Assembly (NCBI GenBank): GCA_031548665.1
Contig: JAVBQW010000029.1
Coordinates: 11,684 to 75,683 of the forward strand
Source: Thermoguttaceae bacterium
Lineage (GTDB): Bacteria; Planctomycetota; Planctomycetia; Pirellulales; Thermoguttaceae
DNA length: 64,000 nucleotides
Direction: 5' to 3'
Position numbers and translations under genes: made by a program. Numbering within the stretch: position 1 is the stretch's first letter; the number at the start of each line of letters is the position of its first letter. Of this stretch, positions 40,033 to 62,448 are shown piece after piece. Under the pieces are notes generated by a model that did no database searches, had not been told where the DNA came from, and saw only the letters and a list, made by a program, of their open reading frames with translations.

Positions 40033-40138
40033 TCAACCCTTCGCAAATTATTCCCGCAGCGGAGTTTTCACGAACTTCCGCGCGTCGCAAGGCGACGCGG
40101 CTAAATTATCGTTCGCATTCAACCTCCAACGTCGACCA

Positions 40139-42715: not shown

Positions 42716-42743
42716 AAATAAAAGCCGTAAGGTTTTTTATACC

Positions 42744-42789
42744 CAAGAGCCGGGGGTGTAGGCGGTACTCCGCCGTAGCCCCCGGATGG
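42744..42789. repeat. PAL-D' hairpin (PAL-D head plus GGTACTCC core)
   Basis: CAAGAGCCGGGGGTGTAGGCGGTACTCCGCCGTAGCCCCCGGATGG. A reverse-oriented relative lies at 52515-52572. Confidence 0.8.
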
Positions 42790-42928
42790 TTAGTGTTCCG
42801 AACAGAATGAAACCTCGAATATGTTTTTTCGAGCGGCAATCGCAACAACGGTGATTGAAGTTCGTTCCGTCCGTCAGTGCGCCAGAATACCGGCTCCCTT
42901 CCGGCTGTTGTATTACCCCCAACGAATC

Positions 42929-46741: not shown

Positions 46742-46750
46742 GGACATTCA

Positions 46751-49700
46751 ATGAGACTTTTTTTCCTGCCGATATTGCTTGTTCTTGTTGTGTTCTGTAA
46801 TTTCACAACGGCTCAAGAGAAAAAAACCTTCGACGGCGACTTCGCCCCTTCCGACGGCTGGTTGAAACCGGCGGAGCGGGAATTTCGGCACGAAATCTGT
46901 CTCAACGGTTCGTGGGAGTTCCAGCCGGTTCCGGTTCCCGCCGATTGGAAGCCGAACCAGGGCGTTCCGCCGGAACTCGTCAAACCGCACGAAAACGGTT
47001 GGGAGAAAACGCGGATAAAAATTCCGTCGCCGTGGAACGTCAATACCTGGGGCAACGGCCGCAACGTCGGCGAGGGAACGAAGCATCCGTATTGGCCGGA
47101 CTCGGTGTACTATCCGAGCTATCCCGAACACTGGGACGGCGTCCGCATGGCGTGGATGAAAAGAGAATTCGCCCTTCAGAGCCGCGACCGTGAGGAAGCG
47201 GTTCGGTATATTCTCCATTTCGAAGCCGTCGGCGGCAACTGCGAAGTGTACGTCAACGGCAAAAAGGTCGGCGAGCATTTCGGACGTTTTTTACCGTTCG
47301 AGTTCGACATCACCGACGCGGTGCAATTCGACAAACCGAACGAAATCCTCGTCGGCGTCCGGAGTCTGCGTCTGTACGATAAAGTGAGCGAAAAGTTCAC
47401 GAAGATGCGGACGCCGTACCCGCCGGGCTCGAACATGGACAACATCTGCGGAATTTGGCAGGACGTTTATCTGCTTACGGTCCCCGCCGTGCGGATCGAC
47501 GACGTCTTTGTAAAACCGTTCGTCTCGAAGGACACGCTGGAAGTCGACGTCACGCTGAAAAACGATTCGGATAAACCCGTCAACGTTTCGATCGACGCTT
47601 GCGTTTTAGCCGCCAACGGCGCGCAAACGCCAATGAAATTGCAACGAACAACTGAAACGGAAATCCTCGCCGGAAAAACCGCAACGATAACGCTCACCGA
47701 AAAGGTCGGCGACAAACTGAAGCACTGGTCGATGGACGACCCGAATCTGTACAATATCGTCCTCGACGTGTCGGCGGACGGTAAAAAGATCGACACGAAG
47801 CAGACACGATTCGGTTGGCGGGAATTCAAAATCGTCGGTAAGGAGTTGCAACTCAACGGCAAGCCGGTGAAGTTGTTCGCCGATTTGTTGCATCCGTTCG
47901 GGCCGTTCATCTGTTCGCGGGACTACGTGAAGGCGTGGTACACGATGGTCAAAGACATGCACGGCAACGCGGTGAGACCGCACGCGCAGCCGCATCCGCG
48001 GATTTACCTCGAATTAGCGGACGAAATGGGAATCGCCGTACTCGACGAAACCGCTCTGTTCGGCAGTTCGATCCAATTGAACTTCGAGGAGCCGATTGCG
48101 TGGGACCGATTTTCGGAGCATTATCGCAAACTGATTTTGCGCGACAGGAACCATCCGTCGGTGTTCGGTTGGAGTTGGGGAAACGAACTGTTCGCGATTT
48201 TCATTTACGACAAGAACATCACGCCTGAATTGACCGACATCTGGTGGGACAAGCTAGCGGCGTACGGAAAAGAGGGCGAAAAGTTGGACCCCTCCCGGAA
48301 CTGGTTTTCCTGCGACGGGGACGGCGATGTTCGGGGAACGAGTCCGGTCTGGAACAAGCACATCGGACACGGCCTGCCGCCGAAAGATTTTTTACCTGAG
48401 AATCTCGACAAACCGTTGATGATCGGCGAACAGGGGGGCTCGTATTACGCCAGACCGGGACAGCTTGCGGTGTTCAACGGCGATCGGGCTTACGAAGACT
48501 ACCGGGGCCGTAGCGAGGCGCTCGGGATCGACGTGTATCAAAATATCGTACAGGTCGCGATTCCGAAGTTGGCGTTCTTCTCCCCGGCGGAAACGGCGTG
48601 GTTCGGTTTGGAGCATTTACCGCTGGGATATTCCGATTTCAGCCGCCTGCCGAATAAACGGGACGGAATATTCTTCACGAAACCTTGCGAAGAAAACAAG
48701 CCCGGCGTGCAGATCGAACGGTTGCCGCCGTACGTCTGTACGTTTAATCCCGGTTGGGACAAGACGCTGCCGCTCTACAAACCGCTCCCGCTCTTCGAAG
48801 CCCAGAAAGCGGCGCAGGATCCGCGAGGTCCGCAACCGTGTCCGATAGGACAGAAACTCAATTTTCGGGCCGTCAGCATCCGAAGCATGGAGACCGATCA
48901 GGTTTTGTTTCACGGCGACCCTCAAGGGGAATTGTTCCGACAGCTCACGGCAATCGGTGTACCGCTCGTTTTACCGAAGGACTGGTCGAAAGAAAGACGG
49001 AATTCCTTCGTCATCGTCGACGGCAATACATTTTCCGACACGAATACGCTTAACGCCGATGAGAACTGGCGAACCGTCGTCGTGTTCCGGCGGAAAACGG
49101 AGATTCCAAAATCGTTCGAGAAATGGTTGGGCAAGACGACGCTCGTCGATCGAACGGCAACACAACTCAAAGGGGTCGAATTATTTTACTATGCCCAAGG
49201 TTGCGGCGTCGACGACTATTATTTTGCCGAAGAGCCGGGGGACCGTAACGTGATCAAATGCGGCTTCGAACTTGATCCGGCGAAGGAATACAACGTTTAT
49301 TACGAAGCGGCGGCGGTCGATTGGTCGTTGTTCAACGAGAGTCCAGAAGCGGCGAAATGCGGGGCCGTCTGCCTTTACGAATCGCTTGAAAAACCGTCCG
49401 GCATCGCGGCTGTCGCCTGCAAGACGAACCGAAGCGAAATTCTCTTTACAACGATCGACGTGATTCCGACGTCGCCGAAAAACGTTGCGCTATGGAAAAT
49501 GTTGCTTTACGGCGTGAAATTCGTCGAGCCGAAATCGGATTGGCTCGTGAAACCGTTCGAAAAAGACGAACCGGGAGTCGAGTGGAATTATACGTTCGAT
49601 AAACCGGCGGACGATTGGATGAAACCGGACTTCGACGCCGCTGTGTGGAAAACCGGCAAGGCGGGCTTCGGAACCCGTGTTCCCGGAATCGAAAAAAGCA

Positions 49701-50041
49701 CCACGCCGTGGACCGGAACCGATATTTGGCTCCGCAAAAAATTCGAGAGCAACGACGAAATCGAATTTTCAAAACTCTTTTTGAACGTCTACCACGACGA
49801 AGACGTCGAAGTTTACCTGAACGGCGATCTCGTCCTGAAACGGGGCGGACATCTCGTCAAGTACGAAAACTTCGAACTGCAGGGAGAACAGAAAAAGTTA
49901 CGAAAAGGCGAAAACGTCCTCGCCGTCCATTGCAAACAGACGGCGGGGGGCCAATACATCGACGTCGGCCTCGGAGTCAAAGCGTCCGGCGCAACGAAAA
50001 AGAAGGAACACGATCTGCTCATGGACGGACCCGTTCAATAA
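46751..50041 (+). CDS. GH2-family glycoside hydrolase (beta-galactosidase/glucuronidase-like) with an extra C-terminal sugar-binding-like jelly roll
   Basis: LHFEAVGGNCEVYVNGKKVGEH, GIWQDVYL, HGNAVRPHAQPHP, RDRNHPSVFGWSWGNE. C-terminal W…PDFDAAVWKTGKAGFG…IWLRKKF…VYLNGDLV. Confidence 0.85.
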   Translation: MRLFFLPILLVLVVFCNFTTAQEKKTFDGDFAPSDGWLKPAEREFRHEICLNGSWEFQPVPVPADWKPNQGVPPELVKPHENGWEKTRIKIPSPWNVNTWGNGRNVGEGTKHPYWPDSVYYPSYPEHWDGVRMAWMKREFALQSRDREEAVRYILHFEAVGGNCEVYVNGKKVGEHFGRFLPFEFDITDAVQFDKPNEILVGVRSLRLYDKVSEKFTKMRTPYPPGSNMDNICGIWQDVYLLTVPAVRIDDVFVKPFVSKDTLEVDVTLKNDSDKPVNVSIDACVLAANGAQTPMKLQRTTETEILAGKTATITLTEKVGDKLKHWSMDDPNLYNIVLDVSADGKKIDTKQTRFGWREFKIVGKELQLNGKPVKLFADLLHPFGPFICSRDYVKAWYTMVKDMHGNAVRPHAQPHPRIYLELADEMGIAVLDETALFGSSIQLNFEEPIAWDRFSEHYRKLILRDRNHPSVFGWSWGNELFAIFIYDKNITPELTDIWWDKLAAYGKEGEKLDPSRNWFSCDGDGDVRGTSPVWNKHIGHGLPPKDFLPENLDKPLMIGEQGGSYYARPGQLAVFNGDRAYEDYRGRSEALGIDVYQNIVQVAIPKLAFFSPAETAWFGLEHLPLGYSDFSRLPNKRDGIFFTKPCEENKPGVQIERLPPYVCTFNPGWDKTLPLYKPLPLFEAQKAAQDPRGPQPCPIGQKLNFRAVSIRSMETDQVLFHGDPQGELFRQLTAIGVPLVLPKDWSKERRNSFVIVDGNTFSDTNTLNADENWRTVVVFRRKTEIPKSFEKWLGKTTLVDRTATQLKGVELFYYAQGCGVDDYYFAEEPGDRNVIKCGFELDPAKEYNVYYEAAAVDWSLFNESPEAAKCGAVCLYESLEKPSGIAAVACKTNRSEILFTTIDVIPTSPKNVALWKMLLYGVKFVEPKSDWLVKPFEKDEPGVEWNYTFDKPADDWMKPDFDAAVWKTGKAGFGTRVPGIEKSTTPWTGTDIWLRKKFESNDEIEFSKLFLNVYHDEDVEVYLNGDLVLKRGGHLVKYENFELQGEQKKLRKGENVLAVHCKQTAGGQYIDVGLGVKASGATKKKEHDLLMDGPVQ

Positions 50042-50053
50042 ACGAGGATTTTT

Positions 50054-50128
50054 TCACACGGAGGCACAGAGGCACGGAGAGGAAGATGAATTGAAAATAT
50101 TCCTCCGTGCCCCCGTGCCTCCGTGTGA
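50054..50128. repeat. Long imperfect inverted repeat TCACACGGAGGCAC-NNN-GGCACGGAG … CTCCGTGCC-NNN-GTGCCTCCGTGTGA
   Basis: Two ~26-nt arms with a 3-nt internal mismatch and an AT-rich ~22-nt loop. Lies between the GH2 and GH43-like genes. Confidence 0.8.
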
Positions 50129-50162
50129 AACAAAATGAATTACATTTCAGTATCGATCCATC

Positions 50163-51245
50163 ATGAAAACAACACCATTCATTTTATTTCCGTTCGTCGT
50201 TTTGCTGAACATTTCACTTCGGGCGCAAGATACACCGAAAGTTCTGTATCCGACGGACAACAACGTCCAATGGATCACGAATCCGACAACGGAAAAAATT
50301 GCGCAACCGAAAATGAAATGGGCCGACACCGCGAAGAAATTCGACAAGGACGGCAAGCCGATTCCGTACTCGAAAGATCCCACGGTCGTTAAATTCGGCG
50401 GACGGTATCTGATGTACTTTTCGCTGCCGCCCAGCGATAAAGTCAAGACGCCGTGCGGTTGGATCATCGGAATCGCCGAGAGTTCCGATCTCGTCAACTG
50501 GAAAACCGTTCGGGAAATTGCGCCGATGCAGGATTGCGACCAAAAAGGACTTTGCGCTCCCTGCGCCCGGGTTTGGGACGGCAAGGTGCATCTCTTTTAC
50601 CAAACGTACGGAAACGGAAAGAACGACGCGATCTGTTACGCTTCGTCGGAAAACGGGCTCGATTTCACGCCGCATCCGGAAAACCCGGTGTTCCGACCGC
50701 ACGGCGATTGGACCTGCGGCCGCGCGATCGACGCCGACGTGTTCCGCTTCAAGGACAAACTCTTTCTGTACGTTGCGACCCGCGATCCCGACATGAAAAT
50801 CCAAAAGCTCGCCGTCGCAACCGCCGATCCGAACTCCGATTACGGCCCGAAATGTTGGACGCAAGCCGCCGACCGCTCCATTCTCGAACCGGAATTGCCG
50901 TGGGAGACGAAATGCATCGAAGCGGCGACCGTCTGTGAGCGCAACGGAAAACTCGTCATGTTCTACGCCGGAGGATACAACAACGATCCGCAGCAAATCG
51001 GCGTTGCGCAAAGTTTCGACGGCGTCAACTGGACCCGGCTCTGGTCGGTTCCCTTCCTTCCGAACGGTCCCGCCGGACAATGGAATTCCTCGGAGTCCGG
51101 ACATCCCGGCGTGTTCGTCGACGACGACGGGAAAACGTACCTTTTTTACCAGGGAAATCCCGACAAGGGAAAAACCTGGTTCCTCTCCGTCGTCGAAATC
51201 GGCTGGAACGGCGACGAGCCGTTCGTTGTTACGGAAAATCAATGA
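50163..51245 (+). CDS. Secreted five-bladed beta-propeller glycosidase (GH43-superfamily-like)
   Basis: DPTVVKFGGRYLMYFS, WIIGIAESSDLVNW, ARVWDGKVHLFYQ, LFLYVATRD and KLVMFYAGG form repeated blade-like motifs. The exact family is not resolved. Confidence 0.6.
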   Translation: MKTTPFILFPFVVLLNISLRAQDTPKVLYPTDNNVQWITNPTTEKIAQPKMKWADTAKKFDKDGKPIPYSKDPTVVKFGGRYLMYFSLPPSDKVKTPCGWIIGIAESSDLVNWKTVREIAPMQDCDQKGLCAPCARVWDGKVHLFYQTYGNGKNDAICYASSENGLDFTPHPENPVFRPHGDWTCGRAIDADVFRFKDKLFLYVATRDPDMKIQKLAVATADPNSDYGPKCWTQAADRSILEPELPWETKCIEAATVCERNGKLVMFYAGGYNNDPQQIGVAQSFDGVNWTRLWSVPFLPNGPAGQWNSSESGHPGVFVDDDGKTYLFYQGNPDKGKTWFLSVVEIGWNGDEPFVVTENQ

Positions 51246-52462
51246 AGCACCGGAAAAAGAACAGGCAGGTTCTCCTCCTCATCGAATCGTCCCGGGCGTA
51301 CGGCCGGGGAATCATCGAGGGCGTTTCCCGTTACGTTCAGGAGCGCGATCACTGGACGGTTTTTTACGAGGAACAGGGGATCCTCTCGACGTTGCCGCCG
51401 TGGCTGAGGGAATGGAAGGGCGACGGCATTATTTGTCGCACGGGAATCTCGACGCTCGGACTCCATCTCCGGAAGCTGGGTCTGCCGCTGGTTGAACTTC
51501 TCGGCGACGGCCGGCGTTTCGTCAGCGAGGTCCAGTCGGACGCCGTCGTCGCCGGCCGGATGGCGGCGGACCATTTCATCGAGCGGGGATTGAGACATTT
51601 CGCTTATTACAATTACGGAAATTCCTGGTGGGGCGAAGCACGGGGAAACGCTTTCGCCGGGGCATTGAGCCAAAAGGGACTCGACTGCCATACGCTGCTC
51701 TCCCGGCACGGCGAAAAGGCGGAGGCGTTCCCCGAATGGAAGCCGCTTTACGAACCGAAATTGCTGCGTTGGCTCTCGACGCTTCCCAAACCGGTCGGTA
51801 TTTGGTGCGCCGCCGATACGATTGCACAACGAGTTCACGCGGCCGTTCTCAAGCTCGGATTCTCGATTCCCGACGACGTTGCGCTGCTCGGCATCGACAA
51901 CGACGAACATCTCTGCAACGTCCTGACGCCGACGCTTTCGAGCATCGAGCCGAACTCCATCGTCGTCGGTTACCAGGCGGCGAAACGGTTGGACGCCAAG
52001 ATGGATCGGAAAACGTCCAGAAATCGAGAAAAGCCGCCGGACGAAACGCCGATCAGGATTGCGCCGCAGGGTGTCGTCCAGCGGCAGTCGAGCGACGTGA
52101 TCGCGGCCGCCGACCCGCTGCTCGTCGCCATCGCCCGGTACATTCGGAGCAACGCCCTGAAAGGATTGCTCGTTGCCGACGTCGCGCGGGAATTCGATAT
52201 TTCGAAACGGACTCTCGAACGGCGTTACAGAAACCATTTCGGACGAACCGTCGACCGGGAAATTACGCTGCTCCGCATGGAACACGCGAAATTCCTGTTG
52301 CGGGAAACTCTCCTGCCGGTCGCGGAGATCGGCGAACAGACCGGATTCGATCGCAACTATTTCATCAAGGCGTTCCACCGGATCGTCGGCGTCTCGCCCA
52401 GCGTTTATCGGAACGAACACCGTGTCGGTACGCCGTGGAAAGATCGACGCGAGGATCATTAG
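51242..52462 (+). CDS. XylR-like regulator (periplasmic-binding-protein-like sensor domain plus AraC-type HTH)
   Basis: Start at MKHRKKNRQVLLLIESSRAYGRGIIEGVSRY, overlapping the upstream stop as ATGA. C-terminal ISKRTLERRYRNHFGRT…IGEQTGFDRNYFIKAFHRIVGVSPSVYR. Confidence 0.85.
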   Translation: MKHRKKNRQVLLLIESSRAYGRGIIEGVSRYVQERDHWTVFYEEQGILSTLPPWLREWKGDGIICRTGISTLGLHLRKLGLPLVELLGDGRRFVSEVQSDAVVAGRMAADHFIERGLRHFAYYNYGNSWWGEARGNAFAGALSQKGLDCHTLLSRHGEKAEAFPEWKPLYEPKLLRWLSTLPKPVGIWCAADTIAQRVHAAVLKLGFSIPDDVALLGIDNDEHLCNVLTPTLSSIEPNSIVVGYQAAKRLDAKMDRKTSRNREKPPDETPIRIAPQGVVQRQSSDVIAAADPLLVAIARYIRSNALKGLLVADVAREFDISKRTLERRYRNHFGRTVDREITLLRMEHAKFLLRETLLPVAEIGEQTGFDRNYFIKAFHRIVGVSPSVYRNEHRVGTPWKDRREDH

Positions 52463-52514
52463 ATTTTCGCTCGACAACAACATCGCCGAGGTTTTCTACT
52501 GTCCGGAACACCAA

Positions 52515-52572
52515 CCATCCGGGGGCTACGGCGGGGTATTGTTTCTCTGGCCGCCTACACCCCCGGCTCTTG
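52515..52572. repeat. PAL-D' hairpin between convergent genes
   Basis: CCATCCGGGGGCTACGGCGG-loop-CCGCCTACACCCCCGGCTCTTG. Confidence 0.8.
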
Positions 52573-52586
52573 AGTTGAACCTTTTT

Positions 52587-54623
52587 TTAATAGAGGCCCG
52601 GATAGGACGTGTTGCCCATGTACAGGTTGTAGAAGCCGCCGTAGTTCGCGGTTTCCTGCGGACCGACCTGGGCGCCGAAGTATCCGTACGGATAAGCATT
52701 GCGAGACGGCATCCGCATCGCGGTGTCCGTCGGCATGTACGGCGTGCACCAAGCCTGCATCATCTGCTGGAACATGTCGTTCTGGCCGCCGCCCATCCGT
52801 TGTTCACGACGCTCGGCCCGACGCGCCGCAAGCCGGGCGAACAATCCCTGGCGACGCGGTTGCTGGTCCTTCATCAGGGCCATCAACATGAGAACGTCGG
52901 TCATCGACATTCCACCCTGATTGAAACCACCTCCGCCGTTCATACCGCACATCGTGTACGGATTTCCCCCCATCATGGGATTCATTCCCATCATCGGGTT
53001 CATGCCCATCATGTTCGGATTCGCGTACATCATCATCATCGGGTTCATTCCCATCGCCATGGGATTACCCATCGACGGATTCAGCGAGGCGGTCGGATCG
53101 GTCGGATTCATTCCCCCCATCATGTTCGCGTTGGCGTCGGCGGCGTACATTTGGGCGTACGGAGCGTAAGCACCGAACATTTGCATTTGCTGCAACTGTT
53201 GCATCTGCTGCTGCATCTGTTGTTGCTGTGCGGCCTGCGGATTGATCGGCAGCGGAGCCTGAAGGTCGTTGCCCGCAAAGGAATCCTTGGCTTCGCCCTC
53301 CGCAGTCGGCTGCGGCGCCCGGCCCATCAATTGGTCGTTCTGCTGCTGGAGCAATTGAATCTGCTGCTGGAGCTGTTGAATTTGCTGGGCGTAAGCCGCT
53401 TGGTAGGGATTCATCGCAGCACCCATCATCGGATTCATCGCGGGGTTCATGCCGCCCATCATCGGATTCATCACGGGATTCATGCCGCCCATCATCGGAT
53501 TCATCATCGGCATCGGAGCCGCTTGATAACCGACGACGACCATTCCGTAAGGCGTCATCGCGGTGATCGGTCGCGGCTGCTGCATGGCCTGCATCGCTCG
53601 CATCTGCTGCATCATCATCATCGCGGCGGGATCCACGGCCGGAGCCATGGAAGGCCCGGGAATGTTCATGTCGCCGCCCATCGGCCCCATCGGACCGGGC
53701 GGCAGGACCATCCATTGCGGACCGGACTGACGGCAACGGAGCAATCCGCAACCGTTATGCGACGGAGGCATGGAAACCATCGTGAATCCGTTCGGCAGCG
53801 TGAAGCACTGCGGACCGCCGGGCATTCCGGGACCGCAGCCGCTCATTCGGCTGTTCATCGGCATTCCGGACATTCCGTAACCGTCCCCGCCCATCATCGG
53901 ATTGAATCCGACCTGCGTCGTGCAACCGTGAAGACCCGTCTGGTTGATGTATCCGTTGTTACCCATCGGAACCGACGCGGCCTTGAACAAGGGCGACGAG
54001 AACGACCACGCGGTCGGCGTTTTTTCCGACGAGCAGAAAATTCCTGCCTGCGTGATTTCGTTCGGCGTGTTCGCGGTCGGCGTCGCCGGAACGACTTCCT
54101 CGGTGTTCGAGGCGAGTTGAATCGGCGTTTTTTCCTCCGCGGCTTTCAAGGCTTTCGGTTCCTGCAGCGTCAATTCGTCGGAGACGGTCGCTTCCGGAGC
54201 GACCTCCGCTTTCGCCGGATTGGCTTCGGGCAGCGGCTGCGGCAACATCTTCGGCGAGACCGGATAAACCGATTGGTTCACGGTTTTCATCGCCGTCGGA
54301 TACGGAAGATTGTAGGAGGGAAACGCCGTATACGTCGCGACGAACGGCGAAACGATTCCGTTGTCCGGCGACGTGTTCAAACTCCGCGACGCCAATTGAT
54401 TTTGGCTCTTGGCACTCGGCAGGTATTGGATCGATTCCGGCAGCACGACATGGGGAACCATTTCGTACTGGACGTTCGGAACACCTCTGGATATTCCGGC
54501 GGGCGTTCCGGACGCTTTGTGTAGACAATCTCCTCCGAAGGCGGGCAAGCCGAACCCCAATCCGAGGACGAGAATTCCAGCGGTCAACTGTTTCCGGACC
54601 GACTTGTTGCGTTTCTTTTTCAT
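52587..54623 (-). CDS. Secreted or membrane-anchored methionine-rich low-complexity protein (678 aa)
   Basis: ATG with GAGGG 6 nt upstream. N-terminus MKKKRNKSVRKQLTAGILVLGLGFGLPAFG. GC3-rich codons on this strand, unlike the His-rich mirror ORF on the plus strand. MNPMMGG-type repeats and a Q-rich coiled-coil-like stretch. Confidence 0.75.
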   Translation of the reverse strand: MKKKRNKSVRKQLTAGILVLGLGFGLPAFGGDCLHKASGTPAGISRGVPNVQYEMVPHVVLPESIQYLPSAKSQNQLASRSLNTSPDNGIVSPFVATYTAFPSYNLPYPTAMKTVNQSVYPVSPKMLPQPLPEANPAKAEVAPEATVSDELTLQEPKALKAAEEKTPIQLASNTEEVVPATPTANTPNEITQAGIFCSSEKTPTAWSFSSPLFKAASVPMGNNGYINQTGLHGCTTQVGFNPMMGGDGYGMSGMPMNSRMSGCGPGMPGGPQCFTLPNGFTMVSMPPSHNGCGLLRCRQSGPQWMVLPPGPMGPMGGDMNIPGPSMAPAVDPAAMMMMQQMRAMQAMQQPRPITAMTPYGMVVVGYQAAPMPMMNPMMGGMNPVMNPMMGGMNPAMNPMMGAAMNPYQAAYAQQIQQLQQQIQLLQQQNDQLMGRAPQPTAEGEAKDSFAGNDLQAPLPINPQAAQQQQMQQQMQQLQQMQMFGAYAPYAQMYAADANANMMGGMNPTDPTASLNPSMGNPMAMGMNPMMMMYANPNMMGMNPMMGMNPMMGGNPYTMCGMNGGGGFNQGGMSMTDVLMLMALMKDQQPRRQGLFARLAARRAERREQRMGGGQNDMFQQMMQAWCTPYMPTDTAMRMPSRNAYPYGYFGAQVGPQETANYGGFYNLYMGNTSYPGLY

Positions 54624-54862
54624 CTGATCCCTCAGCGTATGTTTTGACGGACTCCATTCCAGGCGCGCAGACGCCGCCGGTTCTTTTCGTATGATCGAAC
54701 CAATCGTTAGGAACCGATTGCGAAACGTACCGGTTTCGACGTATTTTCTCGTCGAGTCGGTCGGGTGATGCCGGTTTGTTCGGTCGATCCGAAGAATCCG
54801 GTCGTTCCGTAGATACCGAACGTTCCGGTTCGGTAAGATTTAAGGGCGATGCAGATAGGAAC

Positions 54863-54983
54863 GTCATCCCCGCGAAGGCGGGGACCCAGACGGAAAACGT
54901 GATTGATCGTTTGCATCCGTCAATAACGTGTGCAAGAACCTATTGGAATCTGCTCTCTAGGTCCCCGCCTGCGCGGGGATGAC
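54863..54983. mobile_element. PAL-A MITE-like element, copy 4 (121 bp)
   Basis: GTCATCCCCGCGAAGGCGGGGACCCAGA…TCTAGGTCCCCGCCTGCGCGGGGATGAC. Confidence 0.9.
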
Positions 54984-55011
54984 GGAATGAGGAGCGAATC
55001 GTTTCGACGGA

Positions 55012-57120
55012 CTATTCTTCGTCTTCCGCGAGGACGGCGGACGCGATGACCTGTTGCTGGATGTTGCCCGGAACGGGTTCGTAACGCAGGAACTCGATTC
55101 CGTAGCTTCCCTGACCGCCGGTCATGCTGGCGAGGGTCCGATTATAGGTCATCACTTCGGCCATCGGAGCCTCGGCGAAAATCGTCGTCATGCCGCCGCC
55201 GGCCGGTTGCGAATCCTTGAAACGACCGCGCCGCGACGGGGTTCCCAAATCGCCGGACACGTCGCCGACGTTCGATTCCGGAACCGTGATTTCCATCTTC
55301 ACGATGGGTTCGAGCAGCACCGGCTTCGCCTTTTGGAAGACTTCCTTGAACGCCATGGAACCGGCCGTTCGGAAAGCGTGTTCGTTCGAGTCGACGTCGT
55401 GATATTTTCCGTGGAACAGTTCGACGGCGACGTCCTGAACCTGATATCCCGCGATGACGCCTTTCGCCATCCGCTCCTTGAATCCCTTTTCGATCGCCGG
55501 GAAAAAGTTCGACGGAATCACGCCGCCGACGATCGAGTCGATCCAGAGGAAATTGTACACCGGATCGTAATGGAACGATTTCATCGACGGGAACATCGCC
55601 TTGTCGCTCGCAAAGGTTTCCGGATCGGTGTCCTTGGGGAACGGATACATCCGGATATGAACTTCGCCGAACTGGCCGGCGCCGCCGGACTGCTTTTTAT
55701 GGCGGTACATGCCTTCCGTTTTCGGGGTTTGAATCGTTTCCCGATAAGCGATCTTCGGTTCCTTCGTGTCGAGTTCGACCTTATCACGCCGTTTGAGCCG
55801 TTCGCGCACCACGGTGAGATGGAGTTCGCTCATTCCGGTGATCACGAGCTGTTTCGTCTGCTCGTTCCGTTCCGTGACGAAAGTCGGATCTTCCTGCGAA
55901 ATCTTCGCCAAGGCTCCGGAAAGCTTCGCTTCGTCGCCGCGGCTCTTCGGTTGAGCGGCGAGTCCGACCATCGGGGTCGGGAACGGGAATCGGTCCATCG
56001 TGAAATCGCCGAGCGTTGCGCAGGTTTCAAGTTCTTCGATTTTCGCGACGGCGACGATCATTCCGGGGCCGGCTTCGTCGATCGGTTTCGTTTCGTTCGC
56101 CTGCATTTGGAAAAGCTGCGCGATCTTGATGCCCCGGCGACTGGTCGACGCGGCGAGCGGCTGCCCGTTTTTGAGGGTTCCGCTGTAGACCCGGATGAAA
56201 TTGAGCTTCTGAACGAACGGGTCGATTCGGGTCTTGAAAACTTGCGCGATGACCGGACCGTTCGGATCGGCGACGATTTCGGTTTCTTCACCGGCCTGAT
56301 TTTTCGCTTTACGAACGACCATATCCGGCGGGAGCGCGCAGAGGGGCAGGGCGTCCATCATTTCCTTGAATCCGGCCTTCGTTTTCGCGGAGAGACAGAG
56401 GATCGGAATCAATACGCCTTGGTGAATCGCCTTCTTCATCAGATCGGCGAGCTCGGCGCCGGAGGGAATTTCGCCTTCGAAGTATTTTTCCATGACGGCG
56501 TCGTCGACCGTAACAATCGCTTCGATCAGCGATTCGTTGACTTTTTTCGGATCGAGAACCGCTCCCTCCGCATCGGCGGGGGGATCGAGCGTACTGACAA
56601 CGCCCTTGAAGGAATGTCCCTGACCGATCGGAACGTTCAACGGCACGCATTCCGGCCCGAAAACGTCCTTGATCAGCTTCAGGAGCTTCTCGAAGTCGAC
56701 GTTCTCGTTGTCCATGTTGTTGATAATGATCATTCGTCCAAGTCCGGCTTTTTCCGCTTCGGCGAAGACCCGACGCGTGTTGACCTGAATTCCGGCTTGG
56801 GCGTTGATCACAATGGCCGCGGTGTCGACACCGTACAGGGCGCCGACCGTCTGCCCGATGAAGTCGGGATAGCCCGGCGTGTCAACCACGTTGAAGAGTT
56901 TTCCGGCGTGTTCGAAATGGATCACGCTCGCTTCGATCGTATATTTATGGACTTTTTCCTCTTCGTCGAAGTCGCAGATGCTCGTTCCGTCGTCGACGCT
57001 CGCTAAACGCTTGACCAAGCCGGTTTCGTGGAGAATGGTGTCCGCAATCGTCGTTTTTCCCGAGCCTCCGTGTCCGCAAAGGGCGATGTTCCGAATATCC
57101 GCAACGCTGTACTTGGCCAT
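55012..57120 (-). CDS. Elongation factor G paralog (EF-G II-like translational GTPase)
   Basis: Start at MAKYSVADIRNIALCGHGGSGKTT. G3 reads DTPGYPDF and G4 reads NNMD. EF-G domains II to V are recognisable (…RVYSGTL…, …GELHL-like MSELHLTVV…, C-terminal LEPIVKMEITVP). Confidence 0.85.
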   Translation of the reverse strand: MAKYSVADIRNIALCGHGGSGKTTIADTILHETGLVKRLASVDDGTSICDFDEEEKVHKYTIEASVIHFEHAGKLFNVVDTPGYPDFIGQTVGALYGVDTAAIVINAQAGIQVNTRRVFAEAEKAGLGRMIIINNMDNENVDFEKLLKLIKDVFGPECVPLNVPIGQGHSFKGVVSTLDPPADAEGAVLDPKKVNESLIEAIVTVDDAVMEKYFEGEIPSGAELADLMKKAIHQGVLIPILCLSAKTKAGFKEMMDALPLCALPPDMVVRKAKNQAGEETEIVADPNGPVIAQVFKTRIDPFVQKLNFIRVYSGTLKNGQPLAASTSRRGIKIAQLFQMQANETKPIDEAGPGMIVAVAKIEELETCATLGDFTMDRFPFPTPMVGLAAQPKSRGDEAKLSGALAKISQEDPTFVTERNEQTKQLVITGMSELHLTVVRERLKRRDKVELDTKEPKIAYRETIQTPKTEGMYRHKKQSGGAGQFGEVHIRMYPFPKDTDPETFASDKAMFPSMKSFHYDPVYNFLWIDSIVGGVIPSNFFPAIEKGFKERMAKGVIAGYQVQDVAVELFHGKYHDVDSNEHAFRTAGSMAFKEVFQKAKPVLLEPIVKMEITVPESNVGDVSGDLGTPSRRGRFKDSQPAGGGMTTIFAEAPMAEVMTYNRTLASMTGGQGSYGIEFLRYEPVPGNIQQQVIASAVLAEDEE

Positions 57121-57263
57121 AAAATGTTCCTTGTCGACGAAAATGGATGAAAAAGAGGATCGGAAAACGAGAAACCTGCATTTTACAGAGAATCCCGACA
57201 GGTTCAATCCCCCGAACCAACCGCGTTTTCGGTGTTTGGGTGAGAAGGGGACCTTTTCAGGAT

Positions 57264-57285
57264 CGGGACCGCAGGTCCCGGCTCT
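57264..57285. repeat. PAL-B hairpin downstream of the FGGY kinase gene
   Basis: CGGGACC-GCA-GGTCCCGGCTCT. Confidence 0.85.
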
Positions 57286-57307
57286 GCGTTGATTTTTTCG
57301 GCCGTTC

Positions 57308-58804
57308 CTATTTGTCGGCGATGTAACCCTGCTCCACCATGAGGGTCACGAAATTCTCAAAATGTTCGTTGTAGGCACCGACCAGCTCCGAACGAGGAAA
57401 GAACATCTTTTCCGTGCTGATCATCGCCTCGGCGGTTTCTGCAAGCGAAGGAAAATAGACGCCCATCGCCCCCATCATGGCGGCTCCGAAGGCGGCTCCG
57501 GCGCGTCCGACCATTCGACGATTGACTCGACCGGTCATGTCGGCTCGACTTTGCATCCAAGAATCGGAAGCACTCCAGTCGCCGCCGGAGTAGATGTCGC
57601 CCTGAGAACCTTTGGCGTCGGCGAGTTTGTCGAGTTTTTGATAGCAGAGCCGTTCGAAGAAGGCCGTTCCTTGCAAACATGACGCAAACTGCACGACTCG
57701 ATTGTCGGTAGCCGGAGAAATAAATCCTTCGGCGCTCCCGGAGACGAAGGGAAACGTTTCGCCTTTTCGAGCGTTGGGATACGCCAGATAATCCGTGGGA
57801 AGCAGATTCTGCGCCTGGTGTTCGAGTTCCGTGAACGCGCCGTCGGAAAACCAGACCTTGATCCATTCGGCCCCGGTTTTGCTTTCCGTCGTGAAGAACC
57901 AAGCGTGATTCGGCAACTTGAAACTTCGGATTTGTCCGCTCGAAAAATTGATCAATTTCGGCGAAATGCCGCTGATCGACATGCCGTCGTGAAGAATCGT
58001 GTAAAAGTCGCCCTGCCGCCGCGCTCCGGAAGCGAGAAACGATGCCGTGTCGGAAGTCGTTCCCATCACAACCGGGATTCCAGCGGGCAAACCGGTCAGG
58101 GACGACGCCTTGGCATTGACTTTGCCGACCGGACGTCCCAAGGGAACCAGCTTGGGAAGCCGATCGCGAACGCCCAAATGCAGATCGTAGTCGAGCCAGT
58201 CCGGCCAACATTCGTCGATCAGGTCGCAACCGGTTCGCATGGCGATCGAGTATTCCGTGCAATCGATCTCGCCCTTGAGCATTCCGAGAATATAGTCCGT
58301 CGGATGCGCGAAATAAGCGTTTTCGTAAAGCTCCGGAAGATTGTCCTTGATCCAGGAGATTTTGGCGATCGCGTAATCGGCTTGAAACTGGAACCCCATT
58401 TTTTTGCAGTGTTCCTGACCGAGATAATTCAAGCTCGGAACCTGATCGACCGCGCGGACGTCGTCGCCGAGGATCGCCGGCATCAAGGGATTGCCGCGTT
58501 TGTCGAGAACCAGAATGGGACCGGGATCTCCACAGACGGAAATCGCCTTCAACTGGCTCGGACTGGAAACCTTTGAACGGAGTTGATTGATCAATTGTCC
58601 CAACGCCGAACGGGTCGCGTCCCACCAAACTTCCGGACTCAGTTCGCTGTATCCTTTGACCGTGACCGGATGGCGTTGCACAGCAAACGGAGCATGCGTT
58701 TCGCAAAGAATAACGCCGTTTTCCGTGACGGCGGCGACGTTCACTCGATCCGCCGCCAAATGAATTCCAAGAAAAACAGCCGCTTGGGTGGGAGTCGTAC
58801 TCAT
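57308..58804 (-). CDS. FGGY-family carbohydrate kinase (xylulokinase-like)
   Basis: Start at MSTTPTQAAVFLGIHLAADRV. GTTSDTASFLASGA, IYSGGDWSASDSWMQSRADMTGR and GAAFGAAMMGAMG match FGGY C-terminal blocks. The N-terminal phosphate-1 motif is divergent. Confidence 0.7.
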   Translation of the reverse strand: MSTTPTQAAVFLGIHLAADRVNVAAVTENGVILCETHAPFAVQRHPVTVKGYSELSPEVWWDATRSALGQLINQLRSKVSSPSQLKAISVCGDPGPILVLDKRGNPLMPAILGDDVRAVDQVPSLNYLGQEHCKKMGFQFQADYAIAKISWIKDNLPELYENAYFAHPTDYILGMLKGEIDCTEYSIAMRTGCDLIDECWPDWLDYDLHLGVRDRLPKLVPLGRPVGKVNAKASSLTGLPAGIPVVMGTTSDTASFLASGARRQGDFYTILHDGMSISGISPKLINFSSGQIRSFKLPNHAWFFTTESKTGAEWIKVWFSDGAFTELEHQAQNLLPTDYLAYPNARKGETFPFVSGSAEGFISPATDNRVVQFASCLQGTAFFERLCYQKLDKLADAKGSQGDIYSGGDWSASDSWMQSRADMTGRVNRRMVGRAGAAFGAAMMGAMGVYFPSLAETAEAMISTEKMFFPRSELVGAYNEHFENFVTLMVEQGYIADK

Positions 58805-58984: not shown

Positions 58985-59120
58985 GACCGGAGTACCGGCT
59001 AAATGAGGACCGGGGTACCGGCTAAATAAGGACCGGAGTACCGGCTAAATAAGGACCGGAGTACCGGCTAAATAAGGACCGGGGTACCGGCTAAATGAGG
59101 ACCGGAGTACCGGCTAAAAT
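58985..59120. repeat. Tandem array of about 5.9 PAL-G units of 23 bp (GACCGGRGTACCGGCTAAATRAG)
   Basis: Units start at 58985, 59008, 59031, 59054, 59077 and 59100 and abut directly. The unit is the reverse complement of the 23-mer at 15914 and 37991. Confidence 0.95.
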
Positions 59121-59145
59121 TTTCCTTTTTGTATCGAGAGGTTCA

Positions 59146-62100
59146 ATGGACGATCGCACCATCACGTTTGACGGCCTTTCGATCAATCTTCAACAGGGAC
59201 TCGACACGGAACAGGTCCGACGTTCCACGGAAAAATACGGTCGAAACACTCTCACGCCGCCGCAGCGCGATCCGTGGTGGAAACTGCTTCTCGAAAAATT
59301 CGAGGATCCGACGATCCGTATCCTGATCATCGCGGCAGTTGTCTCGCTCCTCATGACGGTCCTTGAAAAAACCGTCCTCCAACACAAAGAAGCGAGTTTC
59401 ATCGACTCCATCGGCATCATTCTCGCCGTGCTTTTGGCGACGCTTGCCGGATTCTTCAGCGAACTGAAAAGCGCCGGGGAATTCGAGCTTTTGAACAAGG
59501 TCAAGGACGACATCCTGATCAAGGTCTTGCGGAACGGCCAGATTGTCGAGATTTCGATCAACGACGTCGTGATCGGCGATCTTGTCCGACTCGACCTCGG
59601 CGACAAGGTTCCCGCCGACGGCGTCGTTCTCGACGCCATGGGCCTGGTGCTCGACCAGTCCGTGATGACCGGCGAGTCCGTTCCCGTCGAGAAACATCCC
59701 ATCGCGCAAGAGCCGGGGGCGTCAGCCCCCGGATGCGCGGCGACGCTTGAAGACGCAACCCATCCGGGGGCTTACACCCCCGGCTCTTGCGCGGATATCG
59801 ACGAGGTTCATCTCGTTTACCGGGGAACCATGGTTTCGGACGGACACGGCTTGTTCCTCGTCACGGCGGTCGGCGACAAGACCCGACTCGGCCAGATCGC
59901 GGCGAATCTCGGTTCGACGGAGTCGGACTCCGACACGCCGCTGACGCAAAAACTGTCGAAGCTCGCCAAACAGATCAGCGTCGTCGGAATTACCGGCGCG
60001 ATGACGATTTTCACCGTGATGGCCGCCGAGGCGATCTGGAAGTCGACCCTCTTCGGCGAAAACTGGGCGGGAATCCTCCATTTTGAGGACGTCGGTCCCT
60101 TCATCGTACTGAGCTTGATCTCGCTCCTGTTCGGTTTCCTGGCGATGCGCTTCGCCCTGAAGCCGTTCTTCGAGAGCATGGACATTTCCCTGAAGAACCC
60201 GGGACTCCAAGCCTTGGCCTGCGTTCCGATGGTCGTCGGCGTCTTCGGCGTCGGACTCGGCTTGATGGAAATCCTCGACGCCCAAGACTCTTCAGTCGTC
60301 TTCTTCCAGCCGTCGGGAGAATCGAAACTCCTTGAGGGGCCCGAAGCGATGAAATGGATCGTCGGCGAAGCAATGTCGCTCGTTCGGGAATTGTTGACTT
60401 GCTTCGTCGTTGCCGTGACGATTATCGTCGTCGCCGTGCCGGAGGGACTCCCGATGATGGTTACGGTCTCGCTGGCCCTGAATATGATGAAAATGGCTCG
60501 CGAAAACTGTTTGATTCGAAAGCTCGTCGCTTCGGAAACCATCGGCTGCGCAACGGTCGTCTGCTCCGACAAGACCGGAACGCTGACCCAAAACCGGATG
60601 ACCGCGACCTGGCTTTATATTGGCCAACAAGAATTCGATGGAACGGATTTCGCCACGATACACGCCCTGCCGGAATGGTCGAAACTGGTCGACTCGATTT
60701 CCGCCAACAGCGAAGCGTCGCTGCATATCGAGACGGGCGGAGGCCGTTCCGGCGGCAAGAAAGTCGTCGAAGGAATCGGCAACCCGACCGAATGCGCCCT
60801 GTTGCGGCTGCTGTACGACGCCGGAGCCGACTACCGCAAACATCGCGACAAATATCCCCGACTTTGGGAGCTGAACCATAATTCGCAGCGAAAACTGTCG
60901 CTGGTCCTCGTCGAAGTCGACGGCAACAAACTTTGTTGGGCGAAGGGAGCTCCGGAACGGTTGATCGAACGCTGTGCTTCCGTTTACATCAACGGCGTGA
61001 CGCAACCGATTGATGAACATCTGGAAGCGATCCACGCCGCTCTCGACAAGGCCGCAAGCCAGGCGCTGCGGGTGATCGCGCTGACGGAAAAACAGGGAGA
61101 AGGAAACTGCTTCGACGAGTCGCATCCCGATCACTGTTTGAGCTGTCGCTGCCATACGTTGCTCGCCCTCGTCGGAATCGCCGATCCGATCCGGCCCGAA
61201 GTCGCCAAAGCGGTCGAAACCTGCCGCCAAGCCGGCGTCGACGTCAAAATGATTACCGGCGACTCCGAACCGACGGCGGTCGCGATCGCCCGCCAAGCGG
61301 GGATTCTTGCGCAAGAGCCGAGGATTCTTGCGCAAGAGCCGGGGGTGTCAGCCCCCGGATGCGCGACGACGCTTGAAGACGCAACCCATCCGGGGGCTAA
61401 CACCCCCGGCTCTTGCGCTGCCGCCCCCGGCTCTTGCGCGGAGGAACTTGTTCTAACCTCGGACGAACTCGCGAAGATCTCCGACGAGGAGCTGCCCGGA
61501 GTCGTCAAACGGCTGCGGGTTCTCGCCCGATCGACGCCGATGGACAAGCTCCGTTTGGTCAAGGCGATGCACCGTGACGGCGAAGTCGTCGCGATGACCG
61601 GCGACGGAACGAACGACGCTCCCGCGTTGAAATTCGCCGACGTCGGCATCTCGATGGGAATCGCCGGCACCGAAGTCGCGAAGGAAGCCAGCGACATCGT
61701 GCTGATCGACGACAATTTCAAGAGCATCGTCACGGGAATCTGGTGGGGCCGCACGCTGTACCAAAATATCCAACGGTTCCTGCAATTCCAGCTTTCCGTG
61801 AACGTCGTCGCGATGACCTGCGCCCTGATCGGTCCGATGGTCGGCATTCCGTTGCCGCTGACGGTTCCGCAGCTTTTGTGGATCAATATCATCATGGATA
61901 CGTTCGCGGCGATTGCGTTGAGTACGGAGCCGCCCCGGGAAAGTTCGATGCGGCGGCGCCCCGTTGCCCGGGACGCGTCGATCGTTACGCCGTCGATGGG
62001 CGTCTCGATTTTGCTCAACAGTTTTTACCAGGTCGTGATTCTGTTCCTCGCCCTGTATTTCGGCTGGTTCCTCGCTCCGGAACATCGATTTACGTTCAAT

Positions 62101-62448
62101 TTGGCGCCGAGAGCGGAGGAAAACATCGAGGCGTTGACCGTGTTTTTCACGATTTTCGTGATGTTCCAATTTTGGCGGATCTTCCTCTGCCGTTCATTGC
62201 GTTACGAAGAGCCGCCCTTTGCGCAGCTTTTGAAGAACCGGGCCTTCCTCGTGATCGTTTTGATTATCGCCGTCGTCCAATTCGGGATGGTTCAGGCGAG
62301 CGGCTTCGTGGGAATCGGCGAGATTTTTCGAACGGTTTCGCTCTCGGTCGGCCAATGGGGCGGCATCGCCTTGCTCACGGCGACGATCCTCCCGATCGCC
62401 TGGGCCGTTCGGCTTTTCATCTGTCGAGCGGGGCTGGAAGATTGGTAA
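59146..62448 (+). CDS. P-type ATPase, Ca2+-transporting type (P2A/P2B-like)
   Basis: Start at MDDRTITF with GAGAGG upstream. Cation_ATPase_N-like GLDTEQVRRSTEKYGRNTLTPP, TGESVPVEK, VAVPEGLP, CSDKTGTLTQNRM, MTGDGTNDAPALK. Confidence 0.9.
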   Translation: MDDRTITFDGLSINLQQGLDTEQVRRSTEKYGRNTLTPPQRDPWWKLLLEKFEDPTIRILIIAAVVSLLMTVLEKTVLQHKEASFIDSIGIILAVLLATLAGFFSELKSAGEFELLNKVKDDILIKVLRNGQIVEISINDVVIGDLVRLDLGDKVPADGVVLDAMGLVLDQSVMTGESVPVEKHPIAQEPGASAPGCAATLEDATHPGAYTPGSCADIDEVHLVYRGTMVSDGHGLFLVTAVGDKTRLGQIAANLGSTESDSDTPLTQKLSKLAKQISVVGITGAMTIFTVMAAEAIWKSTLFGENWAGILHFEDVGPFIVLSLISLLFGFLAMRFALKPFFESMDISLKNPGLQALACVPMVVGVFGVGLGLMEILDAQDSSVVFFQPSGESKLLEGPEAMKWIVGEAMSLVRELLTCFVVAVTIIVVAVPEGLPMMVTVSLALNMMKMARENCLIRKLVASETIGCATVVCSDKTGTLTQNRMTATWLYIGQQEFDGTDFATIHALPEWSKLVDSISANSEASLHIETGGGRSGGKKVVEGIGNPTECALLRLLYDAGADYRKHRDKYPRLWELNHNSQRKLSLVLVEVDGNKLCWAKGAPERLIERCASVYINGVTQPIDEHLEAIHAALDKAASQALRVIALTEKQGEGNCFDESHPDHCLSCRCHTLLALVGIADPIRPEVAKAVETCRQAGVDVKMITGDSEPTAVAIARQAGILAQEPRILAQEPGVSAPGCATTLEDATHPGANTPGSCAAAPGSCAEELVLTSDELAKISDEELPGVVKRLRVLARSTPMDKLRLVKAMHRDGEVVAMTGDGTNDAPALKFADVGISMGIAGTEVAKEASDIVLIDDNFKSIVTGIWWGRTLYQNIQRFLQFQLSVNVVAMTCALIGPMVGIPLPLTVPQLLWINIIMDTFAAIALSTEPPRESSMRRRPVARDASIVTPSMGVSILLNSFYQVVILFLALYFGWFLAPEHRFTFNLAPRAEENIEALTVFFTIFVMFQFWRIFLCRSLRYEEPPFAQLLKNRAFLVIVLIIAVVQFGMVQASGFVGIGEIFRTVSLSVGQWGGIALLTATILPIAWAVRLFICRAGLEDW
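59704..59792. repeat. PAL-D 89-bp double-hairpin element inside the ATPase ORF (first copy)
   Basis: 16-bp perfect termini GCGCAAGAGCCGGGGG / CCCCCGGCTCTTGCGC. Read as AQEPGASAPGCAATLEDATHPGAYTPGSCA. Confidence 0.9.
61301..61439. repeat. PAL-D element inside the ATPase ORF (second copy, 61330-61418) with both termini duplicated at a 21-bp period
   Basis: 86/89 positions identical to the first copy by hand alignment. GGATTCTTGCGCAAGAGCCG x2 (61301, 61322) and CCCCCGGCTCTTGCGC x2 (61403, 61424). Confidence 0.9.

Follow-up and report, generated by a model that had tools for sequence, protein, structure and literature searches.

The window analysed here, a stretch of 64,000 nt from a Thermoguttaceae bacterium (GCA_031548665.1, contig JAVBQW010000029.1, forward strand 11,684-75,683), contains a gene for a P-type ATPase that harbours, in frame, two copies of a palindromic element built from a pair of inverted repetitive extragenic palindromic (REP) units (Table 1). 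The database copy of the gene product, P0001, starts at 59146 and comprises 1100 aa. It retains the motifs TGES, PEGL, DKTGT and TGDGTNDAP, all four of which are invariant in an alignment with its 17 closest homologues, and it contains five Pfam domains, namely, Cation_ATPase_N, E1-E2_ATPase, Cation_ATPase, Hydrolase and Cation_ATPase_C; with these motifs and domains, it fits the P2B/PMCA type. The nearest solved structures are ACA8 (8qmp) and PMCA1 (6a69), PMCA1/2 being among the top relatives, and the homologues, which come from Planctomycetaceae and Thermoguttaceae metagenome-assembled genomes (MAGs), are annotated as 'calcium-translocating P-type ATPase, PMCA-type'. The closest ortholog, P0002 (77-81% identity), is encoded at locus L005 of the Thermoguttaceae MAG EPI_MAG_00135.

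Table 1. Features of the window that relate to the palindromic element and its host gene
Feature	Position	Strand	Description and basis
Host gene: PMCA-type (P2B-like) cation-transporting P-type ATPase	59095..62448	+	1117 codons; Pfam, alignment, solved relatives
REP dimer copy 1	59704..59792	+	89-nt imperfect palindrome; nhmmer, complementarity, RNA fold
REP dimer copy 2	61330..61418	+	Orientation, reading frame and 25-nt spacer as copy 1; nhmmer
Left terminal reiteration of copy 2	61309..61329	+	Partial element terminus GCGCAAGAGCCGAG and repeated host heptamer GATTCTT
Right terminal reiteration of copy 2	61419..61439	+	TGCCG and second CCCCCGGCTCTTGCGC; weak nhmmer match 61438-61422
Single REP unit, long-loop variant CCGGGGG-TGTAGGCGGTACTCCGCCGTAG-CCCCCGG	42741..42791	+	Intergenic; nhmmer E = 2e-6
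Single REP unit, long-loop variant	52513..52576	-	Intergenic; nhmmer, pattern match

The anatomy of copy 1 (GCGCAAGAGCCGGGGGCGTCAGCCCCCGGATGCGCGGCGACGCTTGAAGACGCAACCCATCCGGGGGCTTACACCCCCGGCTCTTGCGC) agrees in every detail with that given in an earlier note on this DNA: its termini are GCGCAAGAGCCGGGGG and CCCCCGGCTCTTGCGC, and it holds two inner hairpins, CCGGGGGC-GTCA-GCCCCCGG (59713-59732) and CCGGGGG-CTTACA-CCCCCGG (59764-59783). Two arms of 40 nt each (59703-59742 and 59754-59793; 88% complementary) are separated by 11 nt; in terms of REP units, a left core (59707-59735) is followed by a 25-nt spacer (59736-59760) and an inverted right core (59761-59789), and nhmmer, using the profile of a 71-unit family, matches 59705-59737 on the plus strand and 59792-59759 on the minus strand (E ~2e-11). 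The note had further pictured the element as a double hairpin; the small hairpins are indeed present, but at minimum energy the RNA folds into a single long hairpin (-77.2 kcal/mol; z = -9.8 relative to shuffles), and the value for DNA is -44.6 kcal/mol (z = -8.2). The palindrome is far beyond chance: there are nine matches in the window to the 16-mer terminus at three or fewer mismatches (0.9 expected), and five to the hairpin pattern CCGGGGG-N-CCCCCGG (0.03 expected). A separate near-match to the terminus, GCCGAAGAGCCGGGGG at 49226-49241 in a gene of glycoside hydrolase family GH2 (two mismatches), has no hairpin partner and was judged to be a chance occurrence.

Two of the three reading frames of the element are open in the plus orientation. 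In coding terms, copy 1 amounts to 90 nt or 30 codons (59704-59793), the first element codon being at 59704, and the encoded peptide, AQEPGASAPGCAATLEDATHPGAYTPGSCA, comes immediately after TGESVPVEKHPI in the ATPase. The 30-residue insertion claimed for the actuator (A) domain region beyond TGES is therefore borne out by the open reading frame (ORF) as well as by the homologues, which lack it, and PEGL, DKTGT and TGDGTNDAP all follow in frame, as had also been observed. A protein-database search with the four reading frames of the element concatenated gave a single spurious ORF of 86 aa (P0121); it missed P0001 itself, and little weight is attached to it.

Copy 2 lies 1.6 kb downstream, in the linker of the phosphorylation (P) domain, and differs from copy 1 at three of 89 nt (97% identity), with equivalent nhmmer matches at 61330-61363 on the plus strand and 61418-61385 on the minus strand (E ~2e-11). 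Its peptide, AQEPGVSAPGCATTLEDATHPGANTPGSCA, is placed after ...TAVAIARQAGIL (RQAGIL). All three of the nucleotide differences are non-synonymous; two fall in the loops of the small hairpins, one in the spacer and none in the stems. Between the copies, then, it is the nucleic-acid palindrome that is conserved and not the peptide, and there is no sign of selection on the latter. The 25-nt spacer is common to both copies and absent from all other family members seen; two copies with 97% identity and a spacer of their own imply that the doublet was duplicated as one unit.

Copy 2 is additionally bordered by reiterations of its own termini. On the left, these take the form of a 21-nt tandem duplication (61302-61322 and 61323-61343) that is read as ILAQEPR-ILAQEPG; on the right, the reiterated stretch is read as PGSCAAA-PGSCAEE, such that the total insert at this site relative to the homologues spans 61309-61440, or 44 codons. 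We considered the 21-nt repeats as target-site duplications and rejected them, since they contain element sequence and are, rather, tandem reiterations of the junctions. No target-site duplication was found at either ATPase copy: the flanks of copy 1 (...CCCATC on the left and GGATATC... on the right) and those of copy 2 (...GATTCTT and GGAGGAA...) share no direct repeat.

When the ATPase is aligned with its 17 closest homologues (60-81% identity), none of them shows either insert. At site 1, the loop from ...VEK to the conserved (V)YRGT comprises 39 residues, compared with 13-24 in the relatives (mostly 13-21). In P0002, the loops at the two sites have 18 and 15 residues, respectively, and are unrelated to the inserts. 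Solved PMCA-type pumps have four to six residues at both sites, whereas this ATPase has ~40, and the HMMER alignment to them breaks exactly at each: query residues 201-241 correspond to chain residues 297-304 at site 1, and 742-784 to 707-712 at site 2. The exact gap that had been anticipated in an alignment with bacterial pumps is thus upheld insofar as no homologue has the insert and the alignment breaks at that point, but its borders are inexact; both insertion sites are loops of variable length.

Two insertions plus terminal reiterations in one gene, the first insert being directly after the TGES dephosphorylation loop, with the host loop cut to nine residues, might point to a gene in decay, whose pump was impaired or inactivated by the insertions and whose reading frame simply has yet to be broken. 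We regard this as quite unlikely. The ORF of 1117 codons is intact, with the catalytic motifs and invariant columns all conserved; every length change is a multiple of three; comparable inserts persist in essential genes, e.g. priA and lnt; and the comparison with P0002 gives a ratio of non-synonymous to synonymous substitution rates (dN/dS) of ~0.14 at a dS of ~0.87. The host gene is intact and, overall, under purifying selection.

The palindrome falls into two halves, both of them units of the form CAAGAGCCGGGGG-loop-CCCCCGGATG, and such units define a family. A scan for the exact pattern in a genome collection (the source genome was not among the genomes scanned) yielded four loci and placed the unit in two Thermoguttaceae MAGs; the same type of scan found it in 50 metagenome contigs, mostly from three or four related metagenomes. 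The 71 units with a 6-nt loop, drawn from 50 metagenome loci and the Thermoguttaceae MAGs, give the consensus nGCnCAAGAGCCGGGGG-CGTNAG-CCCCCGGATG, for which the core may also be written as GCnCAAGAGCCGGGGG-CGTNAG-CCCCCGGATG. The loop follows a conserved YGTNAG pattern (CGTCAG, CGTAAG or TGTCAG), and in the long-loop variants GTAG is held within the loop. Across the metagenome loci and the MAGs, the units occur both singly and as inverted dimers with variable spacers, an organization that is that of REP sequences, bacterial interspersed mosaic elements (BIMEs) and REP doublets forming hairpins (REPINs), and not that of a miniature inverted-repeat transposable element (MITE) of fixed sequence. 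The window itself contains four full units and two long-loop variants, where 0.03 would be expected. A hairpin that is almost the same, CAAGAGCCGGGGGCTTCAGCCCCCCGGATGC, with GGCTTCGTA(G/A) ahead of it, was also seen in an Oscillochloris MAG of the Chloroflexi (L001, 5660-5710) and in L012 (230-280), another metagenome contig; the likeness may be due to convergence, or a REP related to this family may exist in that distant phylum.

Terminal reiterations are not peculiar to copy 2: they accompany 15 of 88 units (17%), compared with 2% of background windows. They are partial tandem repeats of the element terminus (CAAGAGCC...) that adjoin the unit on its outer side and recur every 13-23 nt, or every 18 or 21 nt within genes, and were noted in the window (61302-61343 and 61403-61439), at two places in L006 (40-135 and 900-950) and in L018, L025, L028, L049, L019 and L036. 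In L006, up to five or six copies adjoin a transposase gene.

REP dimers, or REPINs, are said to be mobilized by RAYT (REP-associated tyrosine) transposases, a connection credited to Nunvar 2010 and to Bertels & Rainey 2011. By inspecting the ORFs that lie between inverted units, we located a candidate for such an enzyme in L006, where an ORF of 174 aa is situated between two dimers of the same unit as in the ATPase element and matches the Pfam family Y1_Tnp with 36.3 bits (gathering score 23). A transposase with 87% identity to this one is arranged likewise in L056, and is also upstream of dnaJ, whereas that of L058 (59% identity) is flanked by a diverged unit, AGAGCCGGGGGCGTTAGCCCCCGGAG; across these three loci, the unit co-varies with the enzyme. 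In the related contigs L006 and L056, the unit thus borders the Y1_Tnp ORF at either end, which is the arrangement known as a REPtron. Among 25 homologues of the transposase, His96 and Tyr157..Gln161 are invariant and His98 is nearly so, and a profile aligns the HUH and YxxxQ motifs with those of the TnpA structures of IS200, ISHp608 and ISDra2 (the IS200/IS608 group); a search of the PDB with the single sequence gave no significant match. Many of the homologues bear the Joint Genome Institute (JGI) name 'REP element-mobilizing transposase RayT', and the enzyme is best termed RayT-like. Two of the RayT-like ORFs, P0126 (L058, 599-1219) and P0189, are annotated as reading into the flanking REP dimer, so that their C-termini are encoded by it (PEPGALAPG...LRGLTAPA and GGRQPPDA...HQGADAPRSP).

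The ATPase is one of several genes to have received the element in frame. At least 11 of ~72 element sites lie inside Pfam-verified genes, the two ATPase copies included; this count of intragenic and extragenic sites refers to the loci and the window, most of the metagenome contigs with the unit being short and unannotated. The clearest hosts, in which Pfam domains flank the element or extend across it, are PriA, Lnt, a BlaR1-type M56 peptidase and an ABC-2 permease; a DEAD-box helicase, a BatA/VWA protein, a Ser/Thr kinase and a DUF2339 protein have recognized domains on one side only. The intragenic copies are read in different frames (QEPGASAPGC, RAGGVSPRM, HPGADAPGSC and IRGLTPPAL), of which the Pro/Gly-rich one is the commonest. 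In EPI_MAG_00135 (L003, 6672-6772 on the minus strand), a diverged dimer is inserted in frame within the 3'BD domain of PriA (810 aa) and uses a different frame (TRAGGEGVLAATPGC...), and the ATPase ortholog of this same MAG has empty sites. Perhaps the most instructive case is that of two Lnt orthologues (76% identity; L046, 9850-9923 and L049, 959-1038), both of which carry a dimer at one position between the LNT_N and CN_hydrolase domains. These dimers differ by indels of 12 and 15 nt, both multiples of three, which fits a translated, frame-constrained sequence. The shared site would reflect either a hot spot or the inheritance of an in-frame insertion of some age, and the pair suggests that such inserts can persist through speciation.

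The Lnt pair also bears on whether the insert reaches the mature protein. A strong hairpin might in principle promote translational bypassing, and one could envisage an intron-like or intein-like route by which the insert is removed before maturation, removal at the RNA or protein level having been raised in the earlier note, although nothing direct speaks for any of these. The window has no match to an Rfam family; 89 nt devoid of catalytic RNA features are too few for a self-splicing intron; the 30 residues contain no intein motifs; and both the insert and the indels of the orthologues are in frame and free of stop codons, as removal would not demand. Such a route is highly improbable, as is an artefact of sequencing or assembly, whether a chimeric join or a mis-assembled repeat. 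The assembly is of a metagenomic type, and repeats are liable to be mis-assembled, but both junctions are in frame inside a conserved gene, the two copies are not identical, and in-frame insertion of the same kind recurs across several metagenomes and MAGs, in numerous contigs that are independent of one another.

Could the insert have been exapted? Very stable hairpins in the mRNA might adjust expression or delay ribosomes where one domain gives way to the next, or the Cys/Pro/Gly-rich loops, one beside TGES and one in the P domain, might modulate regulation of the pump. Both copies occupy domain-linker positions in the pump, their fold is extremely stable (-77 kcal/mol), the Lnt dimer sits exactly between two domains and was kept in two lineages, and intragenic copies are read most often in the Pro/Gly-rich frame. 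Against this, linkers simply tolerate insertions, the hosts are unrelated proteins, the closest orthologues have no insert, and all three differences between the ATPase copies change the amino acid. The same differences, which lie in unpaired loops or in the spacer, lend no support to the functional significance that the earlier note had attached to the proximity of TGES. A dedicated role is, in our estimation, unlikely.

We consider instead that the element is probably a selfish REP-dimer (REPIN-like) insertion, translated as a Pro/Gly-rich loop that the pump tolerates; its family is abundant in Thermoguttaceae-like planctomycetes, where it is associated with a Y1/HUH transposase of the RayT type. 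A RayT-like Y1/HUH transposase provided in trans would have used single-stranded hairpin DNA as its substrate and copied the doublet into the ATPase gene, either twice or once with a local second event to follow; copy 2 would derive from copy 1, or both from a common master, because they share the unique spacer. Selection would then have retained those events that were free of stop codons, a multiple of three in length and located in tolerant, variable surface loops, in this instance the loop that follows TGES in the A domain and the linker that follows GIL in the P domain. Transcription and translation of the element would yield a flexible loop rich in Pro, Gly, Ala and Ser, 30 residues long at site 1 and 44 residues long at site 2; most likely, the pump still works and the insert has no dedicated function.

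A number of observations weigh against this reading. According to Di Nocera 2013 (PMC3733652), a REP unit carries a conserved unpaired tetranucleotide, GTAG or CGTC, at one of its ends; the 71-unit profile contains no such conserved tag outside the stem, the flanks being merely GC-biased. The insertion at site 1 is not a clean one, inasmuch as nine non-element host residues are left in the loop where the relatives have 13-24. The best match of the transposase to NCBIfam is the RayT equivalog NF047646 (REP_Tyr_transpos), albeit at 30.9 bits and below the cut-off of 80, and its profile did not reach the structure of Escherichia coli TnpA-REP at E <= 1. Moreover, a search by regular expression for RayT motifs gave no match in the window or the loci, because the motif of this clade is Y(V/I/L)xxQ and not YxxxNP, and no transposase gene was found in the 64-kb window or at most loci; a RayT-like gene in the source organism would therefore be presumed from its relatives. 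Finally, structure prediction, which the earlier note had proposed, does show the inserts (residues 199-252 and 741-782) as the lowest-confidence coil, but the AlphaFold model of the ATPase is poor overall (mean pLDDT, the predicted local distance difference test, 58; predicted template modelling score, pTM, 0.45) and gives at most a hint of a disordered surface loop.

More speculatively, the family may be unusually prone to settle in coding sequence and so to reshape proteins, with a preference for the Pro/Gly-rich frame and for domain linkers, and the terminal reiterations, a distinctive mark of the family, may reflect an undescribed step of a RayT-type reaction, such as rounds of cleavage and ligation that are repeatedly aborted, or a switch of template at the foot of the hairpin; alternatively, the hairpins within genes might serve as translational pause sites between domains. 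We hold these suggestions to be unlikely.

The two single units of the window are both situated between unidirectional genes. The unit on the plus strand begins 26 nt past the stop codon of ORF 40139-42715, and that on the minus strand 12 nt past the stop codon of ORF 52587-54623(-), ahead of ORF 51239-52483(-). After each single unit, ~60 nt are shared (GGTTRGTGTTCCGRACAG..AAACCTCG...ATGTT.TT.TCGAGCG.AATC; within 42741-42880 on the plus strand and 52400-52576 on the minus strand), and the similarity extends into the start of the next ORF, which in the first case is a GH106-like gene (42821) and in the second an ORF of 414 aa without annotation (52483). This stretch could be a longer repeat or a common 5' leader. 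The wider neighbourhood (40000-58000) encodes many glycoside hydrolases (GH106-like, GH2 and GH43) together with an FGGY sugar kinase and EF-G, which fits a polysaccharide-degrading planctomycete; from the identifiers of the metagenomes, the habitat of the host lineage is presumably termite-gut-like.

The second copy, the REP/RayT-like family and the documented precedent for in-frame REP dimers had all been overlooked in the earlier note. Taken together, they make the ATPase a clean natural case in which a mobile REP doublet has lengthened two cytoplasmic loops by 30-44 residues while the gene remains unbroken, and they show protein engineers two places at which PMCA-type pumps tolerate insertions. 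With its numerous intragenic copies and unusual terminal reiterations, the family also provides material for the study of REPIN transposition and its cost to the host.

MITEs such as Correia, ERIC and Nezha are small, non-autonomous and palindromic, and can produce in-frame fusions when intragenic. The element described here is likewise small, palindromic and able to make such fusions, but it differs from classical MITEs in the lack of target-site duplications at the ATPase copies, in the existence of single units, in its variable spacers and in its association with a Y1/HUH enzyme as opposed to a DDE transposase.

A functional parallel is provided by the Rickettsia palindromic elements (RPEs; Ogata et al. 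2000, 2002; summarized in PMC10969869), mobile repeats that are the classic case of in-frame palindromic inserts in many unrelated, often essential genes and are translated into extra surface segments compatible with protein function. The likeness is in the palindromic, in-frame nature of the inserts and not in sequence: RPE-1, which measures ~150 bp, occurs in alpha-proteobacteria that are AT-rich and live as obligate intracellular organisms, and no transposase is known for it, whereas the present element is a G+C-rich dimer of 29-34-nt units from a planctomycete, with a candidate transposase in relatives.

The REPs themselves afford the best comparison. Di Nocera et al. 2013 (PMC3733652) describe intragenic REPs in several species, over half of these inserts being dimers or groups that contribute 20-30 amino acids; the same survey reports ORFs with two REP inserts, e.g. 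uvrA of Opitutus terrae and Thioalkalivibrio, finds replication and repair genes to be frequent hosts, and lists the planctomycete Rhodopirellula baltica as having both REPs and many tyrosine transposases. The inserts in the ATPase are thus an already documented kind of event and call for no new mechanism. In common with REPs and REPINs, the family consists of a short, G+C-rich palindrome that occurs singly, closely after stop codons and between unidirectional genes, and in inverted pairs, each of which folds as a single long hairpin; in relatives, a Y1/HUH transposase gene is flanked by its units; and its intragenic dimers encode ~20-30 residues, sometimes with two in a single ORF. It departs from them in having YGTNAG in the loop instead of a terminal GTAG or CGTC tag, in the divergence of the transposase, which scores under the NCBIfam RayT cut-off, in the frequency with which the terminus is partially reiterated, and in its host, a Thermoguttaceae planctomycete lineage outside the published surveys compared; REP/RayT systems and protein-decorating repeats are hereby extended to the gut-associated Thermoguttaceae.

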